Source: Shigella phage SFPB. From it: DNA of 64,000 nt. The translations under genes were made by a program, and so were the position numbers. This document shows positions 2,059 through 52,346 of the stretch, one piece after another (the stretch's first letter is position 1; each line of letters starts with the position of its first letter). The stretch lies in the sequence record OQ031072; one strand, 5' to 3'. The notes under the pieces were generated by a model, which saw nothing but the letters and a program-made list of their open reading frames with translations, had not been told where the DNA came from and did no database searches.

Positions 2059-2456
2059 GACTCTTAAATAGACACAGCTTTGTAGTTAAAAGAAAGGTAT
2101 CTGAAGATGGTTATTACAATGAAGATGGTGATTGGGTAGCTTCACAGGATATTGTATCAATTAACTGCAAAGGTAATATTCAACCTTATATTAAGGGTTC
2201 TGTAAAGAATGGTACACAGATTGTTTTACCTGAAGGTATCAGACTGACAGATACAAGAATCCTTTTCACTGTAGCTGAGTTAAGAACGTCTGATGATGTT
2301 GATTGGACTGAAGCTGATATTGTCATGATTAAGGGACACGAATACGAAGTCTTTATGACAATGGATTGGTCTGAACAATTAGCTCACACATCCCATTATG
2401 AGTATATCATTATTAGAAGGGATAAGATGAATGCAGTTAGAAACAGCAGAACTTGA
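2055..2456 (+). CDS. hypothetical head-tail joining protein
   Basis: ATGA-coupled ORF in structural operon. Confidence 0.5.
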   Translation: MRLLNRHSFVVKRKVSEDGYYNEDGDWVASQDIVSINCKGNIQPYIKGSVKNGTQIVLPEGIRLTDTRILFTVAELRTSDDVDWTEADIVMIKGHEYEVFMTMDWSEQLAHTSHYEYIIIRRDKMNAVRNSRT

Positions 2457-3030
2457 GAAAGGTATTGTCCGAGTTTTGGTTGATGTTATTGGTCACCGTT
2501 TAGCGAGAGACAAGAATAACAGACCAAACGTTATTAGGGCTTACCCTTCAGATAATTCCAATGATAAAGGTCTAAAACCAGACCAGCCTTTTATTACAGT
2601 ATACTGTCAAGATGCTACCACACCTTATGGTTGGGTTCTTGATAAGTTCGTGGAAGATGATGTAGTTTGTTACAGAATTGCTTTCCAGATTCCTGTACTG
2701 ATTACTGTAAATGGTAAAGGTGCTCACAGTATTATGCTTGAGCTAAAACAAAGATTAGAGATGAGTACTACAAGAGATTATCTAGCTGACATGACAGGTG
2801 CTTCAGTACTTGATACAGGGGCTATCCCAAATGATTATACTTATCTCAACACAGATTTTGAAAATTCTGCACCTCTTGTTGTAACCCTTGTAAAAAATTC
2901 AGTATTAAAAGATGAACGTGGAAGTATTATTGAACGTATCATTGTGGATGGTGAATTGGTTTACGAGGAAGGACAGGAGCCACCAGAATATACTATCCAT
3001 CTAGATGTAGACTCCAAAGGGGTAAAATAA
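2431..3030 (+). CDS. hypothetical tail completion/neck protein
   Basis: ORF in structural operon, 199 aa. Confidence 0.5.
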   Translation: MQLETAELEKGIVRVLVDVIGHRLARDKNNRPNVIRAYPSDNSNDKGLKPDQPFITVYCQDATTPYGWVLDKFVEDDVVCYRIAFQIPVLITVNGKGAHSIMLELKQRLEMSTTRDYLADMTGASVLDTGAIPNDYTYLNTDFENSAPLVVTLVKNSVLKDERGSIIERIIVDGELVYEEGQEPPEYTIHLDVDSKGVK

Positions 3031-4382
3031 ATGTGGAATCCAATTGTTAATGTAGATATTACATTGAACACAGCAGGAACTACAAGAGAAGGTTTTGGTT
3101 TACCATTATTCCTTGCTTCAACAGATAACTTTGAAGAAAGAATCCGTGGTTATACTTCATTAACAGAAGTAGCTGAAGACTTTGATGAAAGTACTGCTGC
3201 GTATAAAGCTGCAAAACAGCTATGGAGCCAAACTCAAAAGTAACTCAACTGTATATTGGTAGAAGAACTATGCAATATACTGTTTCTATTCCTGACACAG
3301 TGGCTGAAGGAAGTGAATATTCATTGACAGTTGCTATTGGTGGTGGTGTTTCTCAGCCATTCCAGTACACTGCAAAAGAAAGCGACACAGCACTTATTGT
3401 CTTGAATGAGTTTAAATCACAGATTGAAGCAAGCCCAACAATTAAAGATGGTGTTAATGTTAGTGTAACAGGTACTGGTGCTTCTGCGACGATGATTATT
3501 ACTAAAGCTGGTGATAATGACTTCGTAAAAGTAACGTCTATTACACCTACAACATCTATTGCAGCAACAACTGCTGACACGGCTTCCGCTGCTCTGGCAT
3601 CCATTGAAGCATATTCAACAGATTGGTACTTCATCTCAGCAGAAGACAGAACTCAACAGTTTGTCTTGGCAATGGCTTCAGAGATTCAGGCTCGTAAGAA
3701 GATTTTCTTCACAGCTAATGCTGACGTTAAGGCTCTGCAAGGCACTGATTTGACCTCTGCAACAGATGTTCCGGCACAGTTAGCTAAGAGCAAGTACACT
3801 CGTACAGTTTGCTTGTGGCATCACACAGCCGAGTATGACTACCCAGAAATGGCTTACATCGCATATGGTGCTCCATATGATGCAGGTTCAATTGCTTGGG
3901 GTAACGCTCAATTAACTGGTGTTGCAGCATCTCTACAACCTGCTAACCAGAGACCACTGACAAGCATTCAGAAGTCAGCTTTAGATACCCGTAGCTGTAA
4001 CTTCATTGACCTCGATGGTGGGGTTCCTGTAGTGCGTAGAGGTATCACTTCTGGTGGTGAATGGATTGATATTGTACGTGGTGTTGATTGGCTTGAATCT
4101 GATTTGAAAACATCTCTGAGAGACTTGCTAATTAATCAGAAGGGTGGTAAGATTACTTATGATGATACTGGTATTACCCGTATTCGTCAGGTCATTGAAA
4201 CATCTCTTCAGCGAGCAGTTAACAGAAACTTTTTGTCAACTTACACCGTTACTGTTCCTAAAGCCTCACAAGTTGCATTGGCAGATAAGAAAGCACGTAT
4301 CCTGAAAGACGTTACCTTCCACGGTATTCTTGCAGGGGCTATCTTGGATGTTGACTTGAAAGGCACAGTGGCTTACGAATAA
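3031..4382 (+). CDS. putative tail sheath protein, reading frame changes (-1) between about 3207 and 3243 (70-aa ORF 3031..3243 plus 386-aa ORF 3222..4382)
   Basis: Combined size (~456 aa) and position immediately upstream of the tube gene; the 22-nt out-of-frame overlap is atypical for this genome, where neighbours are TAATG/ATGA-coupled. Adding one A at A-run 3213-3216 or 3236-3239 fuses the ORFs. Confidence 0.4.
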
Positions 4383-4396
4383 AGGAGTAATTAGGA

Positions 4397-4843
4397 ATGG
4401 CTATGTATCAGCAATATTCCCCTAAAGATGTAGTTTGTAGCTGGAATGGCATTGCCATTGAAGGTTTTGCACCAGACTCATTCTTGCGTCTTCAGAGAAC
4501 TTCTCCACTTGTTACGCCAGTTGTAGGTGCAGGTGGTCAAGTAGCTCTGACAAGAAATGCAGACAAGACAGGTACGATTGAGATTGAGCTAATGCAGACT
4601 TCTCTATCTAACCAGATGCTTTCTGCAATTCAAGCTAAACAAGATGACATGGAACTTGAAGAAGACATTTCATCTAACTTCGTAATTTATGACCCATCCG
4701 GTTCAGTACTGGCTACAGGTATCAATGCTTGGTTGCAAGAGCTTCCACAGATTGAACTTGGACGTGACCAGAACTCTAAAACTTGGATTTTCGGTTGTGA
4801 GAAGTTAGACTACGCTTCAACAATCCCTGCGTCAAGCGTTTAA
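4397..4843 (+). CDS. putative tail tube protein
   Basis: 148-aa ORF between putative sheath and chaperone/tape-measure genes; SD AAGGAG. Confidence 0.5.
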   Translation: MAMYQQYSPKDVVCSWNGIAIEGFAPDSFLRLQRTSPLVTPVVGAGGQVALTRNADKTGTIEIELMQTSLSNQMLSAIQAKQDDMELEEDISSNFVIYDPSGSVLATGINAWLQELPQIELGRDQNSKTWIFGCEKLDYASTIPASSV

Positions 4844-4918: not shown

Positions 4919-5320
4919 ATGAAAACTGAAACTAAAATGATTAATGGCAAGAAGGTAACTATTATTCTTCTTGGAGCTAGAGATGGTATCCGTATCTCTA
5001 TGAAGCTTGGTAAAGCAGTTGTACCAGCATTTGCACAGATGTTCTCTGGTTTAACCTCTAAAGATGGGGAAGCTAAAATCCCATTTAAAGAACTCGTTGA
5101 AGCTTGCTTTGAAAAGGTTGACGAACTAGATATTGATGCAATGGCAGAGACACTATTTCAGGGGGCAACAGTTAATGACTTCCCACTGAAAATTGATAGT
5201 TACTTCCAAGCGAACTACGGTGAATTTATTGACTTCTTAGCTTTTGCTTTGGAGGCAAACTTCGGAAGTTTTTTCGAGGCAAGCATTTTCAAAAGCCTAA
5301 CTTCTCAGCAGGAAGCTTAA
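4919..5320 (+). CDS. tail assembly chaperone (gpG-like)
   Basis: 133-aa acidic ORF immediately upstream of tape measure gene; conserved synteny. Confidence 0.55.
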   Translation: MKTETKMINGKKVTIILLGARDGIRISMKLGKAVVPAFAQMFSGLTSKDGEAKIPFKELVEACFEKVDELDIDAMAETLFQGATVNDFPLKIDSYFQANYGEFIDFLAFALEANFGSFFEASIFKSLTSQQEA

Positions 5321-5556
5321 GTTATTCTATGCAGACCCCGCTGACTGACGGGGCTGTAAAGGCAACTTATGATGAAGCAGATGAGATGAAATTTGTGCTT
5401 GCTATTTATGGTATGGATGGGTGTAAAGAAACACTCAACCAACTTTTTGATATGACCTTCGTTGATTTATTATCTCTACGTCAATATTTAGAAATCCAGA
5501 AGTCATATAAAGAAGAAATGGCTTACAACGAACTCAGAAAAGCAGGTAAAATTTAA
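5233..5556 (+). CDS. -1 frame extension of tail assembly chaperone (gpGT-like; predicted product 4919..5275 joined at -1 to 5275..5556)
   Basis: -1 frame is open from 5233; canonical slippery heptamer T_TTT_TTC at 5269-5275 in the zero frame; extension ends TAATG-coupled to the tape measure start. Confidence 0.5.
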   Translation, partial: LLSFCFGGKLRKFFRGKHFQKPNFSAGSLSYSMQTPLTDGAVKATYDEADEMKFVLAIYGMDGCKETLNQLFDMTFVDLLSLRQYLEIQKSYKEEMAYNELRKAGKI

Positions 5557-7768
5557 TGGCACAATATACAGTTGATAGTTTTATTGTTGAACTTGGATTC
5601 AGTGAAAAGGTTATTAAGGGTTTGCAAAGAGTTGAGAAAATGGCTATGCAGTCTGCTCAACGTATCGAACGCAATATCAATAAAGCCTTTGATGTGAAGC
5701 CTAATAGAAGTTCACAAGACGCTCTAAACAGACTTGTAAAAAACGCTCAGACTGCTTCAGGCAGAATCAATAAATCCCTAAACAATGCTATGAATTTAGA
5801 TTCACAAGGTGTAAAATCACTTCGTAGATTAGAAACACAGGGTAAGAAAACAGCCAAAGAAATTAATAAGGCTCTAAGACAAGCTATGAATGTTGAAGGT
5901 AAAGTCAATGTTCGTGGTGGAGTTGGTAGAGGCCGTGGTAATACTATCCCTCCGGTTGGAGGTGGTGGTTCACCTAGAGTTAGACCTGATATTGCTCAAA
6001 GACAAATGGAAAGAATGTTTAATAACAACTTCTATTCTGGTTTGACTCGTCGTCTTGAAACAATTGGTGGACAAGGTAACCAAATGGCTACTTCCTTCAG
6101 AGGAAGCTTACAAGGAATCTATAATAAGTACAAAGGTAGTGGTAAAGTTGGTGAGTATGAGATGGAAGTCAAGAAACTCATTGACACTACCAAACGTTGG
6201 GTTATTGCAGAAAATGCTAGACTTAAGGCAGTCAGAGAGTCAGCTTGGTTACAAGACAGAGCAAACTCTTCACTAAGACAGCTTGTAGGTGGTTTTGTTT
6301 CAGCGTATGCTATGCTGGAATTAGCTCAGAAGACTATTGATGCAGGTGTAAAGAGACAGTCTGCACAGTTAGCCTCAACAGCTATCTTTGGAGGGGATAC
6401 ACAGCAAGCTAGAATGTTCGCTGCTACGTTCTCTCACCAGATTGGTCAGAACTACACAGACACTATGAAGCAGTACTCAAACTTTGCTGCTGGTGCTCAG
6501 CCAGAGCTTGGTTTCCAAGGTACTCAGGAGTTCTATAAGAACGCTGCAATGTTCTCACGTATTCGTGGGGCTACTGATGAAGACTTGAAAGGTATCATGA
6601 TTGCTTTCCAGCAGATGGCATCTAAAGGTAAGATTCAGGCTGAAGAACTTCGTGGTCAGTTAGGTGACCGTTTAGCAGGTGCTGTTCAGCTATTTGCTGA
6701 TGCTATTGGGAAGACTCCACAAGAACTCGATAAGATGATGAAAGATGGTAAACTTCTTGCAAAAGATGTTCTACCAAAAGTCTCAGAAAGGATGAGAGAA
6801 CTTGTTGAAGCAGCAGGTGGTATGAATGCAGTTTCTAAGCAGACAGCTACCTCTATGGGTCAAGCCAAAGCTATGTGGGACAACACTCTTGTAGCACTCT
6901 TTAACAACTCTAGTGAAGGTATTTCACAACTTTCTAACTCTATTGCAATGTTCTTGCAAGGTTCACTTGGTACATCTCAGGCACTTGGTACAGGTATTGG
7001 TTACCTTTTGAAAGGTGCTAGTAACTTATTAGACTTCGTGACAGATATTATGTACCGCATTTCTTCATTGTACTACACAGCAATGGGTTATTACAAGGAA
7101 ATGGATGCTGGACAGCAGAAGTTAGTGAAAGAAGCTTCAGAGTTCCTTGCAACGGTTGTTGCTATTGGTGGTGCTGTAGCAACGGTTGCTAAAGTGGCGA
7201 AGCTTATCACTGGATTCTTTGATACAGCAATTGTACGAAAGATTCTTCAGAGATTTGGCATTGAGGTGGCTGAGAAAGTTGCACCAAGAGCAGCTCCATT
7301 TTTAATGCCACCTCAAGTAAAGGTAGCCTTGGCAACAATGGCACTATCTAGGTCTTCTGACCCAAATGCGGGGAAGAGATTTAATGAGGTTAATACACCT
7401 AACCCTTTCAATGAAGCTGTTTCAGGAATCACTAATCCAAAACGTCCTATGTTCTTTGACCAGAATGGACAACTCCAGTTTGCACAATACACTACAGATA
7501 CCTCTGGAAATATTCAGAGAGTTGATAACGGTTTGTCGAATTGGGATATTATCATGAACAACCTGTCTGAGTCTCTAAATAACTTTGCAAATAAGTTTAA
7601 TCAGACACCTATGATGATGACTCCTTCTGGACTCCCATTACAAACTAAGCAGACGCTTAACGTTTCCTTTAATCTGGATGGTAAGCAGATTGCTACTAAG
7701 ATGGTGGATATCACTGACAAGAATCAGGAAGATATTCTTTTAAACTCTAGCTACCCAGAGGATGAATA

Positions 7769-7769
<1 letters not shown>
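5556..7769 (+). CDS. tail tape measure protein
   Basis: 737 aa, Gly/Ala/Gln-rich with predicted helical N-terminus and hydrophobic segments; directly follows chaperone pair. Confidence 0.7.
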
Positions 7770-17866: not shown

Positions 17867-18765
17867 CTACTTACCTACTGATAAAGGTGCTTCAATCTTA
17901 CCAGCATGTTTATACCCTTTCAACCCACCTAGAAAGTCATCTGCTGTCATATGTCTCAAGTCTTCAAGAGACTTCAAATCTTGATGAATTTCAAACTTAG
18001 GTGCTGGAAACTCTTCATTACCAAGAAGTTGAAAAACCTGCGACATATGGTTCTGGTATATTTGAGTATCACCATAAGTCCCTATCAGATATCGCGGTGT
18101 ATATCCCGTCAGTTTACACAACACTTCCAAGATAAAGGCATAGGAAGCGATGTTAAACGGTAACCCTAAGAACGTATCACAAGAACGCTGATACCATTTT
18201 AAATCCACCTCATTAGTGTTCGAGATATAAATCTGAAAAAGTACATGACAAGGTGCTAATGCCATAGAGTTACTTGAGATATCTGCTGCATTCCATGCGT
18301 TAACGAGCATGTAACGGTCTGTAGGGGACTTTCTCATCTTCTCTACAAGATTACTCAACTGGTCTACAACAACACCACCATGACCTTCGTAGGCTCTCCA
18401 TTGGACTCCGTAGATTCTTCCTCCAGCGTCCTCCAGCCAATCATTCTCTGTAGCATAGGTTGTTTTCAACCAACGTTTAAAATCATCTGTCCAGATAGTC
18501 CAACGCTCTCCGTCGTTCTCCCCCAAGTTCTGTAACGCAAATGGCCTAGTTGGTTTTCACCGTTCATAAACCATAATGCTTCACCGAGGACTTGACGCAT
18601 AAATGTTTGTTTTGAGGTGATTAATGGGAATCCACTACGCATATCAAAACGGAACTCAGGTGGAGCAAAGGTCGAAATCACTGAGCCAGTTCGGGTTTTA
18701 CGCAACTCACCAACTGATAAAACATGGTTTAAAATAGCTTTGTAGCTTACATCTGCTTGTGACAT
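17867..18765 (-). CDS. thyA: thymidylate synthase, frame interrupted (N-terminal ORF 18466..18765, C-terminal ORF 17867..18526); apparent 1-nt deficit at the G5/C5 run 18520-18524
   Basis: N-terminal part has RTGxG...FPLITSK...LWF; C-terminal part has ...WNAADISSNSMALAPCH...FQ..Y and LGLPFNIASYA; the two ORFs are in different frames. Confidence 0.85.
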
Positions 18766-18780
18766 ATTAGAAACGTCCTC

Positions 18781-19311
18781 TTACTTGTGGAACATAGGTA
18801 TCAAACACCACAGACTTATCTTCTGAGGTTTGGACTGTACTTTAGCAAATAACTCTGTGTCATACAAGTACTGGAAGAAACCCTCATAAGGTAGCTTGAC
18901 AGTAGCCTCTTCAGTAACTTCCTTAATAACACTGTGGAAAACTACGTCAGCATACGGCAAAGCTGAGATTAAGATATTGGCTCCACCGATTACTAAAACA
19001 TCTTCCTCAATAGAACTATCAATATACTTTAGGAAAGCCCCAAAAGCTTCAGACTTAACTCTTGCTTTGCAATGAGAGTCATCTTTAAAGTCCAGACCAT
19101 AAAAGTCAAGAGAGTTTGTTAAGACAAGGTTCTCACGGTTTGGCAAAGGTTTGCTCCCAAGAGTCTTCCAAGTTTCGCTACCCATCAAGACTAACTGGTT
19201 AACAGTCTGCTTCTTAAACTCTGCCATATCTTGTTTATTACGAGGCCAAGGCATTCCAGTAGCTGTGCCAAACTCCCCGTTAATACCACTTGCAAAAATT
19301 AACTTAATCAT
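18781..19311 (-). CDS. frd: dihydrofolate reductase
   Basis: MIKLIFASGINGEFG..MPW N-terminus typical of DHFR; adjacent to thyA as in T4-type phages. Confidence 0.75.
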   Translation of the reverse strand: MIKLIFASGINGEFGTATGMPWPRNKQDMAEFKKQTVNQLVLMGSETWKTLGSKPLPNRENLVLTNSLDFYGLDFKDDSHCKARVKSEAFGAFLKYIDSSIEEDVLVIGGANILISALPYADVVFHSVIKEVTEEATVKLPYEGFFQYLYDTELFAKVQSKPQKISLWCLIPMFHK

Positions 19312-30359: not shown

Positions 30360-32342
30360 ACAGAGAAAACTGAAAGATGCTGGAACATTTGTAGGTCACT
30401 GTGCATGTCCACGCCCTCAATGTTTATCTTCAGATGCAGGTTCTATATATCGTCATGATGACGGTTCATATTCAATGACATGTTTCAGTTGTGGAAAAGG
30501 TTTTCCAGAGTGGGATTTTGATAAAGGGCAGATTGTGAGTACTCATACTTCAGGTTCAGAGAATAAAAACCGTACATTTCGTGGTATGGATTTAGATGAT
30601 GTGAAAGAAAACCTAGAAGCAATGGATTTAAAAGACAGGAAGATTCCTGCAAAAGTCCTTGAGCGCCTTGGTATTAAAGTTGATATTGACGACAATGGTG
30701 ACATTGATGCGCACTTCTATCCAACATACAAAAAAGATGAAGATGGTAAGTTGCAACATGTAGGTTATCGTGTTCGTCACAAATATCCAGATGATTATCA
30801 CAAAGAGCACTTACGTGGGAAGTTGAAAGACTTTTCTGGTGGTGTCGGAGATATCAAAGGTGAACTGGCTATGTTCGGTTCATGGATTGCTCCAGAAGGT
30901 GGTAACCGTCTTTTCATCTGGGAAGGTGAGATGGAATGTGCTACAGCAATCTACATGACTTCTTTAGCAATTAAAGATAAGTCTAGACGTAAGAATTACT
31001 GCCACGTTTCTGTACCATCCGGTGCTAATGTTAAGTCTATCAAAGAGAACTATCAGTATATTACTTCCTTTGATGAGATTTACCTATGCTTTGATAATGA
31101 TGAAGCAGGGGCTAAAGCAACTAAGGAAGCTGCTGGTATCTTACCTATTGAAAAAGTAAGACTGTTCCAGTATCCTGAAGGTATTAAAGACCTTAGTGAG
31201 TGGTGGACTAAGTTCTTCAAAGACAAAGATACAGTCTTGGAAGGATTTAAACAACGAATCTACAATGCACCTCGTTACTGCCCTGCTGGTATCAAGAACT
31301 TTGCAGATGGTTTCGATGCTATGAAGAATCGTGGTCAGATTCCTTTAATTCCTTTCCCAGATTCTTTCGGGGATTTGAATAAGTTGACTTATGGCGGGTA
31401 TGGTTTAGGTGAGATTACAACCCTTGCTGCACCTTCATCTGTAGGTAAGTCTGCATATACTCGTGAAATGATTTACAAAGCATGGAAAGATACTGAGTAC
31501 AACATCGGTGTAATTCCTGTAGAAGACACTTACGAAGAACTTATGGAAATGCTCTGTGCAATCCATCTTAGTAAGCAGATTTCAGAGATTCCTTACGATG
31601 AGCGTAATTGGGATGAGATTAAGGTTGCACATGCTGAGTTGTCAAAAGGTCGTCGTATTCACATCGTAGACCACCAAGGGGCAATTGACCAAGATAACCT
31701 GCTGGAGTTTGTTGACTATCTGGTTAACAGCCTTGATTGTAAGATTATCATTCTTGACCCTATTACATTGGCGCTGTCACGCTCTGATACAGATGAAGAA
31801 GAAGTTCTGTCTGAGTTACTTCGTCGCTGTAAGCGTTATCAGTATGCTCAGGTAAACGTGTGTCACGTTCGTAAGAGTGCAGGTGGTCAAAAGGCCAACT
31901 CTGAAGGTGGTGATATTTCTGAAGAAGATATCAAGGGTTCTGGTGCATACTTCCAGATTTCCATGAACAACATTTTGCTTATGCGTAACAAGGTTGACCC
32001 AGACCCTGTTAAAAAGAACTTGACAAAATCAAGTTAACGAAATGTCGTCGTCATGGTAAATCAACTGGTATTGCTGGTCACACTTGGTACAATCCAGATA
32101 CAGGCCGTCTTGTAAAGGCTGCTGGATGTGGTGTTGATATTGATGGTGCAGCAGAGAATATTCGTCAGCAGTTTGGTATTGGTGAGGCTGAAGACCATTA
32201 TGATGACTCTATGCCACACTATGAAGATGTTGATTTTGACCGTGAATCTGGAGAGATTTACACACAAGAGCAACGTGAAAGCTCCACCATTCCACCTGTG
32301 ATTAACGAGGATAATGATGACTGTCCGTTCGAAACTGATTGA
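30352..32342 (+). CDS. T7 gp4-like primase-helicase; frame interrupted at A5 run 32011-32015 (frame A ends 32037, C-terminus continues in -1 frame to 32342)
   Basis: N-terminal Cys4 zinc finger; primase acidic motif FIWEGEMECATA; Walker A GLGEITTLAAPSSVGKSAYT; the -1 frame after the A-run encodes KLTKCRRHGKSTGIAGH..., matching the T7 gp4 C-terminus. Confidence 0.85.
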
Positions 32343-32814: not shown

Positions 32815-33222
32815 ATGTCTAAAGTTGTTAAAATGAAAGCTCCGGTAGAGAAGTACAATGGTCAAGAACGTGAGACTCTGCGTTACCTACTGAAAGATGT
32901 TTGGTTCTATTACCTGAACACTATTCCACGTCCTCAAAAGGGTAAATCTGTGGATAAGCATTTTCCGGGCAAAGATTGTAACTACAGCGTTTCAATTCTG
33001 GCAAAAGATGGTAACAAGCTCTTTAAAGAGTTCACCAAATCCAAGCGCAATGCTGAAGGTTGGGATAAAGTTACTACAGAGGCTGTTGATGCAGATGACT
33101 TCGAAGAGAAGTTTGGTTGTGAGCCTCCGTTTGAAGCTGACACCTATCACATCCTGAAGGTTAGCCGTTCAGCAGCATATAAAGACGGTGCTGTGTGGTC
33201 AGCAAAACAGAGTTTCCTGTAA
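32815..33222 (+). CDS. hypothetical protein
   Basis: 135-aa ORF with SD. Confidence 0.5.
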   Translation: MSKVVKMKAPVEKYNGQERETLRYLLKDVWFYYLNTIPRPQKGKSVDKHFPGKDCNYSVSILAKDGNKLFKEFTKSKRNAEGWDKVTTEAVDADDFEEKFGCEPPFEADTYHILKVSRSAAYKDGAVWSAKQSFL

Positions 33223-49973: not shown

Positions 49974-52346
49974 ATGCGCATGGTAAATGACCACGCAACG
50001 GTAATTAAAAGCTCAAGTACACTGGAAACCTCTCAGGCTCAGATTAAGATGACACCTGAAATGTTCAGTCTTCTAAGCTCAGGTGTTTACACATATAAAG
50101 AACGTGCTGTAATTCGTGAATTGTCATGTAACGCAGTAGATGCTCACATTGATTCTGGTAACGTTGATAAACCTTTCTTGGTTCACTTACCAACTCGTTT
50201 CGAGCCATTCTTTGAAGTTCGTGACTTTGGTACTGGATTGACTCATGATAAAGTAATGGACCTCTACATGAACTACGGAGAGTCAACAAAGAATGATTCA
50301 AATGACTACATCGGAGCTATGGGTATCGGTTCAAAGTCACCGTTTGCGATTGCTCAATCATTTACTGTATCAAGCTACGTTGATGGTGTTGTTAACAAGT
50401 ACTCTGTATATCTTGAGAATGGTATCCCTCAAGTTACTAAGTTGACTACTAACCCAACTACAGAGCCAAATGGTTTAGCTGTTCGAGTAGCGGTATCTGA
50501 TAACCGTATTAACAAGTTTCATGAAGAAGCGAGCAATGTATACTCGTACTTTAAAGTTAAGCCAGAGTGTAATGTTGAGTACTATGACATTCTTGAAGCA
50601 ATGACTTCCATTTCTCGTGAAGATGGTGTCTATGATGCAATGAAGTACAAAGAGAACTGGCGCTCAAATAGTAACAGTGTCCATTTCAACGTAATCATGG
50701 GAGATATTGCTTATCCTGTTGAAATGGGCGAGTTGCTTGGTTCAGAGTTTACAAGTATTCTGCCTCAGTTCTTCCGTAGTGCTGTAGACCTTGTTAATAT
50801 CTACATGCCAATTGGTTCAGTGGCTATTGCTGCATCTCGTGAAGCATTACAGATGAATGAGACCACTAAGACAAAGATTGTTGAAGCCGTGAAGAAAATC
50901 ACTAAGACAATCGTTGAAGATGTGGTTAAAGAGATTGCTAATAAGCCAACGCTGATTGATGCTGCTCAGGCTTATGATACCATGAGGAAAGAGGCTCGTG
51001 AAATCTTTAATCACGTCCAAGATTCTCTGGAGTGGCAAGGTCAGAACTTGAAAAAGCTTGAACAAAAGCTATTGGGTATTCGTCGTGGTCAGTTAACTGA
51101 AGCAGATGGTTCTCCATCATTCTTGAAAGATGATGCAGGTAACTTAAGGCTTGACAAAGACGGTAATCCAGTCCCTAATATTGGTAATCTGTATGAGCCT
51201 GTAGCATATTACAAGTACAGCAGTCTGGAGAATCGTATTCGAGCAACTTCAGCAACATATTCACAAGATGCTGCCATGTTTAGTATCTTTGGTGCAATGA
51301 GTAAAGATAAGTTGAGCAACTATTTGTTCCTTATCAATGACCGTCGAAACAAGAACGGGTCTGAAAAGACGACTGGTAAAAATCAGATTATCCGTGGAGC
51401 TTGCCGTGACCGTGAACAGGAAGATTCTAACTTCCGTCGCTACAATGGTATTGCTTTCTTGTTCAGCAGTCAGCAGCAATTTGATGAATTTGTAGCTCTG
51501 CATATGCTTGACAAGACTCTGTTAAGTGTGCATACAATGTCATCTAAAGAGCACCACTATGAGAAACGTACCATTGTACGTGGAGTGGTGAAGCTGTACA
51601 AAGCATTTATATGTCCAAATACTTACATGATTCGTTATACAGAGGTTAAAGAGAACTTTGATGAGATTGAAGAACCACAACTGTATATCAAAGCACAGAG
51701 TGATGAAGTGATTGGTGGAATCTTCTCATGTTCACCAGAACGTGCTGCAACGTTGATGACAGAGTTAACTGGACAGTCTGTTTATGTCTTCCGTAAAGCC
51801 AACTGGAAAAAGATTCCTGAAGACTGGACAGAAGTCAATGAACAAGTAATGAAAGATTTTATTGATAACACTCATTGGATTGAGTATCACCGTTACTTGA
51901 CTCACCAATATATGACTAATAATCATGATATCACTGATTGTAATGTGATTTCTCGAAACTTTATGTTTGCTGATAAGCGTAAGTCCAGAGGCCACATTTA
52001 CAGTAAAGACTTTAAGAAGACTATTTTCTTAGAGGGGAATGAAGAGGCTATAGAAGCAATGTTTGGACGCTTGGCATATACTGCTGCACCAGTTGCTTAC
52101 AAAGATATTACCAGCACTCTTGATACCATTCGCAGGAATATGAGAGGCTCTTGTAAGCCAAGAAAGGTTCTGGATAACGCTAAGAAGCGTCTTGAAAGTA
52201 AGTTCAAAGATTACTTTGAGAAACGCCGTAAAGAAAACTTCTTGCTTTCTAATCTGGATTGGAATAAAGTATCACCAGTCGAAGTTGGTAAGTTTTTAGG
52301 TTTTGACACTAAGAGCATTCCAGAAGATACTGTATGCTGGGATTAA
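49974..52346 (+). CDS. rIIA: rIIA-like protein with GHKL-type ATPase domain
   Basis: N-terminal ELSCNAVDA, RDFGTGL and GAMGIGSKS motifs; ~790 aa; followed by rIIB-sized gene. Confidence 0.55.
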   Translation: MRMVNDHATVIKSSSTLETSQAQIKMTPEMFSLLSSGVYTYKERAVIRELSCNAVDAHIDSGNVDKPFLVHLPTRFEPFFEVRDFGTGLTHDKVMDLYMNYGESTKNDSNDYIGAMGIGSKSPFAIAQSFTVSSYVDGVVNKYSVYLENGIPQVTKLTTNPTTEPNGLAVRVAVSDNRINKFHEEASNVYSYFKVKPECNVEYYDILEAMTSISREDGVYDAMKYKENWRSNSNSVHFNVIMGDIAYPVEMGELLGSEFTSILPQFFRSAVDLVNIYMPIGSVAIAASREALQMNETTKTKIVEAVKKITKTIVEDVVKEIANKPTLIDAAQAYDTMRKEAREIFNHVQDSLEWQGQNLKKLEQKLLGIRRGQLTEADGSPSFLKDDAGNLRLDKDGNPVPNIGNLYEPVAYYKYSSLENRIRATSATYSQDAAMFSIFGAMSKDKLSNYLFLINDRRNKNGSEKTTGKNQIIRGACRDREQEDSNFRRYNGIAFLFSSQQQFDEFVALHMLDKTLLSVHTMSSKEHHYEKRTIVRGVVKLYKAFICPNTYMIRYTEVKENFDEIEEPQLYIKAQSDEVIGGIFSCSPERAATLMTELTGQSVYVFRKANWKKIPEDWTEVNEQVMKDFIDNTHWIEYHRYLTHQYMTNNHDITDCNVISRNFMFADKRKSRGHIYSKDFKKTIFLEGNEEAIEAMFGRLAYTAAPVAYKDITSTLDTIRRNMRGSCKPRKVLDNAKKRLESKFKDYFEKRRKENFLLSNLDWNKVSPVEVGKFLGFDTKSIPEDTVCWD

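Follow-up and report, generated by a model that had tools for sequence, protein, structure and literature searches.

Among described tail sheaths, the protein closest to the one considered here is gp39 of Shigella phage Sf14. Sf14 gp39 was detected by mass spectrometry of the phage particles (PMC11821841, Table 1), and has been modelled together with the tube protein gp40 in the map of the helical tail (PMC11821841). The Sf14 tail is a C6 (six-fold) helical assembly in which the sheath is a major, high-copy structural protein (PMC11821841). Cryo-EM models of the neck and of the helical tail of this phage are available on the PDB (9C39 and 9C3B), and in these the sheath chain is continuous and comprises 450 residues. 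Structures have also been solved for more remote relatives, among them phi92 gp130, the Pam3 sheath and the 9CB9 tail sheath.

The window analysed here is the whole 64,000-nt stretch of Shigella phage SFPB (OQ031072), and is assigned by megablast to Mooglevirus, a group of Felix O1-like myophages within the Ounavirinae. The window is approximately 97.8% identical to its relatives over 25 kb. Across the sheath gene, megablast returns identities of 98.3-99.6% to Citrobacter phage KMM4, to the Shigella phages Henu11 and Sf13-Sf19 and to Escherichia phage 3HA14. KMM4, Henu11, Sf17 and Moogle each encode this protein in one CDS of 1353 nt (450 aa), for which the RefSeq name is tail sheath. The gene in the window is the same ordinary, well-known Felix O1/Moogle-type tail sheath, and its division into two ORFs is in all likelihood an artefact of sequencing and base calling or of assembly.

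The sheath gene and its surroundings

As it reads in the window, the sheath gene is divided between two ORFs, 3031-3243 (+; 70 aa) and 3222-4382 (+; 386 aa), each of which starts with ATG. The original prediction had noted that these ORFs overlap by 22 nt in different frames, and the ORF list and the sequence agree on this point; the 386-aa ORF is phased one base earlier, and thus occupies the -1 frame. The ATG at 3222, from which this second ORF starts, is internal to the sheath gene. The gene and its parts are as follows.

3031..4382 (+): complete sheath gene as read in the window; 1352 nt, against 1353 nt (450 aa) in the relatives
3031..3243 (+): N-terminal sheath fragment; residues 1-68 are authentic, and Q69, K70 and the TAA stop are products of the frame error
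3235..3236 (+): site of the missing C; ACTCCAAAAG in the relatives, ACTCAAAAG in the window
3237..4382 (+): aa 70-450 of the sheath, encoded in the -1 frame, from tblastn and the PHROG 205 match

The last stop in the -1 frame ahead of the second ORF is the TAA at 3204-3206, and one base added anywhere between this codon and the stop of the first ORF (3241-3243) fuses both ORFs. The stretch over which the frames can be joined had been anticipated, and is confirmed from the sequence as 3207-3243.

The gene had been called a putative tail sheath, and this name is borne out by profile searches in which the two halves match the sheath family back to back, as well as by a solved orthologue. Residues 1-70 of the first ORF match positions 14-84 of the PHROG 205 (tail sheath) profile with E=3.9e-23, and residues 5-385 of the second ORF match positions 83-434 with E=8e-90. 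The match to this profile therefore covers its full length, and is divided exactly at the junction of the two ORFs. The Pfam family DUF3383 (PF11863) is distributed in a similar manner, with positions 4-70 covered by the first ORF and positions 165-418 by the second. The second ORF scores 57.9 bits, above the cut-off of 34.9; the 22.1 bits of the first ORF alone fall under this cut-off, as expected for a 70-aa fragment. The orthologue from Henu11 matches the 450-residue chain of PDB 9C39/9C3B with E=2e-292, to which it is nearly identical.

The gene also lies where a sheath gene would be expected. Its neighbours, as identified by Pfam, are a Phage_tail_terminator_9 gene (2431-3030) and a gene for a KPP10_Orf10/rv5-like tube protein (4397-4843), and a 737-aa ORF at 5556-7769 has the size of a tape measure. 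The order terminator, sheath, tube, chaperones and tape measure is found in the window, and is the same in the annotated relatives. A single uninterrupted ORF of approximately 450 codons, which is also typical of the sheath family, is not found in the window, where the absence of one C interrupts the frame. As a separate observation on this neighbourhood, the KMM4 record (Citrobacter phage BSwM KMM4, OP902293.1) probably contains frame errors of its own in the genes adjoining the sheath: its tail terminator CDS (locus 132-608) measures 477 nt instead of 600, and its tube CDS (locus 2292-2543) measures 252 nt instead of 447.

The 22-nt overlap had itself been regarded as odd among the TAATG and ATGA junctions of this operon. 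Such junctions do dominate the operon, but a natural overlap of 26 nt (2431-2456) is present just upstream, between the genes at 2055-2456 (133 aa) and 2431-3030 (tail terminator). Because this overlap recurs in the annotations of Henu11, Sf17 and Moogle, long overlaps are not abnormal per se in this operon, and the length of the overlap alone does not mark the sheath junction as abnormal.

A single missing cytosine

Alignment of the region 3150-3300 with KMM4, Henu11, Sf17 and Moogle contains one gap, situated between 3235 and 3236, at which one C of a CC pair has been lost. At 3232-3240 the relatives read ACTCCAAAAG and the window reads ACTCAAAAG; in longer context, the relatives read CAAACTCCAAAAGTAAC and the window CAAACTCAAAAGTAAC. 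The lost C lies directly 5' of the second A4 run, and the flanking 80 nt have 0 mismatches to 3HA14 and Henu11. When the C is put back, a 1353-nt gene is obtained, with a 450-aa ORF that reads LWSQTPKVTQLYIGRR and is approximately 99% identical to the 3HA14 sheath. By tblastn, residues 1-70 of the 3HA14 sheath align to 3031-3240 of the window in frame 1 (98.6% identity) and residues 70-450 align to 3237-4379 in frame 3 (99.2% identity).

The original prediction, which had suspected another homopolymer indel, was thus correct in substance: one C is missing, the relatives have a single CDS and both halves belong to the same sheath family. A one-base indel in a short run is indeed what separates the frames, but the lost base is a C of the CC pair and not an A of an A4 run. 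Fusion does yield one sheath-sized protein, the restored length of which is 450 aa rather than the approximately 456 aa first estimated.

To survey the wider set of relatives, 60 records were taken from across the 300 phage records that matched the 1352-nt gene of the window. In this sample the match spans 1353 nt in 50 of 52 full-length cases, and only one feature lies under it wherever the sampled record carries annotation there. The two exceptions are the Escherichia phages ESCO50 and ESCO56, in which the match spans 1380 nt; this span suggests that the sheath gene in these Felixounaviruses carries an in-frame insertion of approximately 27 nt. Relatives with the same two ORFs had been named as the finding that would speak against an indel. 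The two-ORF arrangement of the sheath gene is absent from every relative examined, and the relatives have one 450-aa CDS instead. A 147-kb record labelled "Staphylococcus phage SA1" (GU169904.1), which looks like a mixed or chimeric assembly, also contains a sheath gene of Felix O1 type at 72472-73824; this gene is full-length and 82.5% identical to that of the window.

The deletion is private to the window sequence, while its flanks equal those of the relatives. A 41-mer carrying the deletion has 0 exact matches in IMG/VR, the JGI metagenome contigs and the GTDB genome contigs; the corresponding wild-type 41-mer has 2 matches in IMG/VR. With a degenerate 28/29-mer pattern, which allows for the third-position differences of Moogle, the single-C form has 0 matches in IMG/VR and the CC form has 6. 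An exact-product look-up in an index of 153 billion genes returned neither the 70-aa nor the 386-aa product.

Companion deletions and the cause of the break

The full genomes of 3HA14 and Henu11 were rebuilt and aligned to the window. An unfiltered census of indels consisted mostly of alignment noise in divergent regions, and was replaced by a filter under which an indel had to be isolated and uncompensated, flanked by clean sequence and of a length that is not a multiple of three. Nine sites, including that in the sheath gene, were found at which 3HA14 and Henu11 agree with each other against the window, and the window is one base shorter at all nine. No one-base insertions in the window were found at sites where 3HA14 and Henu11 agree. 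The deletions fall in C/G runs at eight of the nine sites, and a T precedes the run (read as Cs) at seven of these eight. The sites are listed below.

3235 (+): tail sheath, split; CC in Henu11
4857: no gene, between the tube and chaperone genes; G5 in Henu11
13567: gene junction, in the last codons of a 99-aa ORF; G3 in Henu11
18520..18521 (-): thymidylate synthase (ThyA), split; C6 in Henu11 and C5 in the window, with aa 1-84 and 82-299 in different frames
18827..18828 (-): dihydrofolate reductase (DHFR), 3' end shifted; G3 in Henu11 to G2, with aa 1-164 and 161-181 in different frames
27888: no gene, just upstream of the DNA polymerase start; C3 in Henu11
32025..32029 (+): DNA primase/helicase (663 aa), split; A5 to A4, with aa 1-559 in frame 1 and 550-663 in frame 3
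33216..33218 (+): 287-aa conserved hypothetical protein, split; C3 to C2, with aa 1-134 in frame 1 and 130-287 in frame 3
45579: no gene, intergenic; C3 in Henu11

Five of these nine deletions split long conserved ORFs, namely those for the sheath, thymidylate synthase, DHFR, the primase/helicase and the 287-aa protein; the deletion in DHFR shifts its last 20 or so codons. By tblastn, the five broken proteins show 90-100% identity on both sides of the break and run on to the natural stop. The control comparison of 3HA14 with Henu11 over 68 kb contains eight isolated indels, which occur in both directions and break no long gene, the longest open frame in their regions being at most 139 codons. 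A further one-base deletion in the window, in an A6 run at 52345, was seen in comparison with Henu11 only; it falls between genes or at a gene junction, and breaks no long ORF.

One-base losses that are biased in direction and context are the usual sign of systematic homopolymer under-calling, and a strictly lytic myophage cannot be propagated for sequencing if it has neither sheath nor primase/helicase. Because the deletions in the window have this bias, and because a phage deprived of these two proteins could not be grown, we infer that the missing C is an error of sequencing or of the consensus. One C of the CC pair at 3235/3236 would have been lost in the deposited or assembled sequence, such that the frame appears broken after residue 68. 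The likeliest cause is that short C/G runs were systematically called too short, either in sequencing or when the consensus was built, with the phage itself unchanged. The real phage most likely makes one 450-aa sheath subunit, which would polymerise around the tail tube, the product of the next gene (4397-4843). What speaks against this explanation is that a run as short as CC is an unusual place for a homopolymer error.

The alternative that fares best, although it too is improbable, is that the deletion is real and arose very recently in the phage population from which the sequence came. A defective variant, for example, could have been complemented by wild type at high multiplicity and come to dominate the consensus. 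The identical flanks and the intact downstream frame fit such a recent event as well as they fit an error. However, five independent frame-breaking deletions in one genome would be needed, and two of the five broken genes, those for the sheath and the primase/helicase, are indispensable. The deletions, moreover, share one direction and, with few exceptions, a C/G-run context, and none of the other collections searched contains the variant.

Possible recoding at the sheath junction

It is very improbable that the C deletion is real and the tail works all the same, whether through a P69Q sheath made by rare slippage at A_AAG_UAA (3237-3243) or through a non-covalent split sheath. In the split version, the 70-aa N-terminal piece and the 386-aa remainder could assemble non-covalently. 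The slippage version, judged by itself, is more improbable still. It supposes that full-length sheath is produced from the deleted gene by -1 slippage of tRNA-Lys on A_AAG (3237-3240) before the TAA, and the resulting 450-aa product would differ from wild type only by P69Q (SQTQK, then VTQLY). The loss of the C does, by chance, place A_AAG directly before TAA, with GGAG at 3224-3227, 9 nt upstream, and a real mutant could for this reason be slightly leaky, a point that counts against an artefact. The tetramer A_AA.G is, furthermore, the most shift-prone in E. coli (PMC4066793). Even this best tetramer, however, shifts by only a few percent, and does so with a strong pseudoknot, and Z_ZZN tetramers without a downstream pseudoknot shift by approximately 0.15% in E. 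coli, against a background of approximately 0.11% (PMC4066793). The relatives, in which the frame is intact, have both the GGAG and the A run as part of their ordinary coding sequence. Since the sheath is a main structural component, present in many copies, sub-percent expression by slippage could not support growth, and slippage would in any case leave the four other broken genes unexplained.

The junction was also compared with established recoding sites. The codons in the frame of the first ORF up to its stop are GCT GCA AAA CAG CTA TGG AGC CAA ACT CAA AAG TAA, and direct reading of these agrees with the earlier statement that a slippery heptamer is lacking: no X_XXY_YYZ heptamer occurs in this frame at 3207-3243, and the only shift-prone motifs at the junction are the tetramers A_AAA (3213-3216) and A_AAG (3237-3240). 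No stimulatory RNA structure was found in the 90 nt downstream, which fold with an MFE of -16.9 kcal/mol (z = -0.75) and which are equalled or surpassed in folding by 47 of 200 shuffled versions. The two-frame layout is likewise not conserved, with a single frame in every relative examined. The sheath junction resembles the -1 frameshift of phage tail chaperones (lambda G/GT type) in its overlapping 0/-1 frame ORFs within a tail operon, but differs from it in having no heptamer, no stimulatory structure and no conserved two-frame layout. It is not a member of the programmed -1 frameshift class.

The appearance of a true recoding site in this operon can be seen 2 kb downstream, where the first ORF for the tail assembly chaperone (4919-5320) carries the canonical -1 slippery heptamer T_TTT_TTC (5269-5275) close to its 3' end. 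This ORF is followed in the -1 frame by the ORF at 5329-5556, and the orthologous pair in Moogle is a two-piece joined CDS; the site is a genuine, known programmed -1 frameshift of the G/GT type. Transcriptional slippage is known from runs of approximately 8-9 nt or more, and is unlikely at the sheath junction, where the A runs are only 4 nt long.

The weakest alternative, with next to no probability, takes the ORFs as two real genes, one for a small 70-aa protein and one for a shorter, 386-aa sheath started at ATG 3222; both ORFs do begin with ATG and overlapping genes do exist in the operon (26 nt, 2431-2456), but the real small upstream gene that the original prediction had offered as its alternative is refuted, as no relative examined has the two ORFs and the Sf14 chain is continuous over 450 residues, the 70-aa ORF forms the N-terminal part both of the sheath profile and of that solved chain, no Shine-Dalgarno motif can be read from the sequence upstream of ATG 3222 and neither product occurs in the 153-billion-gene index.

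Implications and comparison with known sheaths

With an error in the sequence as the preferred explanation, the split is no biological feature and the finding matters mainly for annotation hygiene. The annotation should join the two ORFs or mark them as a tail sheath gene with a frameshift. Users of the record should assume that single bases are missing systematically from short C/G runs along its entire length, at least four further genes of the window being broken like that of the sheath. Wherever else in the genome a gene seems to be split, small and new, or recoded, comparison with the relatives should come first. A real deletion would make for a modestly interesting leaky or split sheath, but the evidence is strongly against it.

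Apart from the break, the gene closely follows its described counterpart. Sf14 gp39 (FDI99_gp118) is approximately 98% identical over all 450 residues to the protein of the relatives and to the repaired protein of the window. Its place in the operon is also the same, with the tail terminator/collar gene on one side and the gene for the rv5 Orf152-like tube protein on the other. The Sf14 gene is an unbroken 1353 nt, whereas that of the window is one C short and is read as ORFs of 70 and 386 aa. Set beside the PHROG 205/DUF3383 sheaths of the Felix O1-like, phi92-like and related myophages, the window sheath differs solely in this break of frame.
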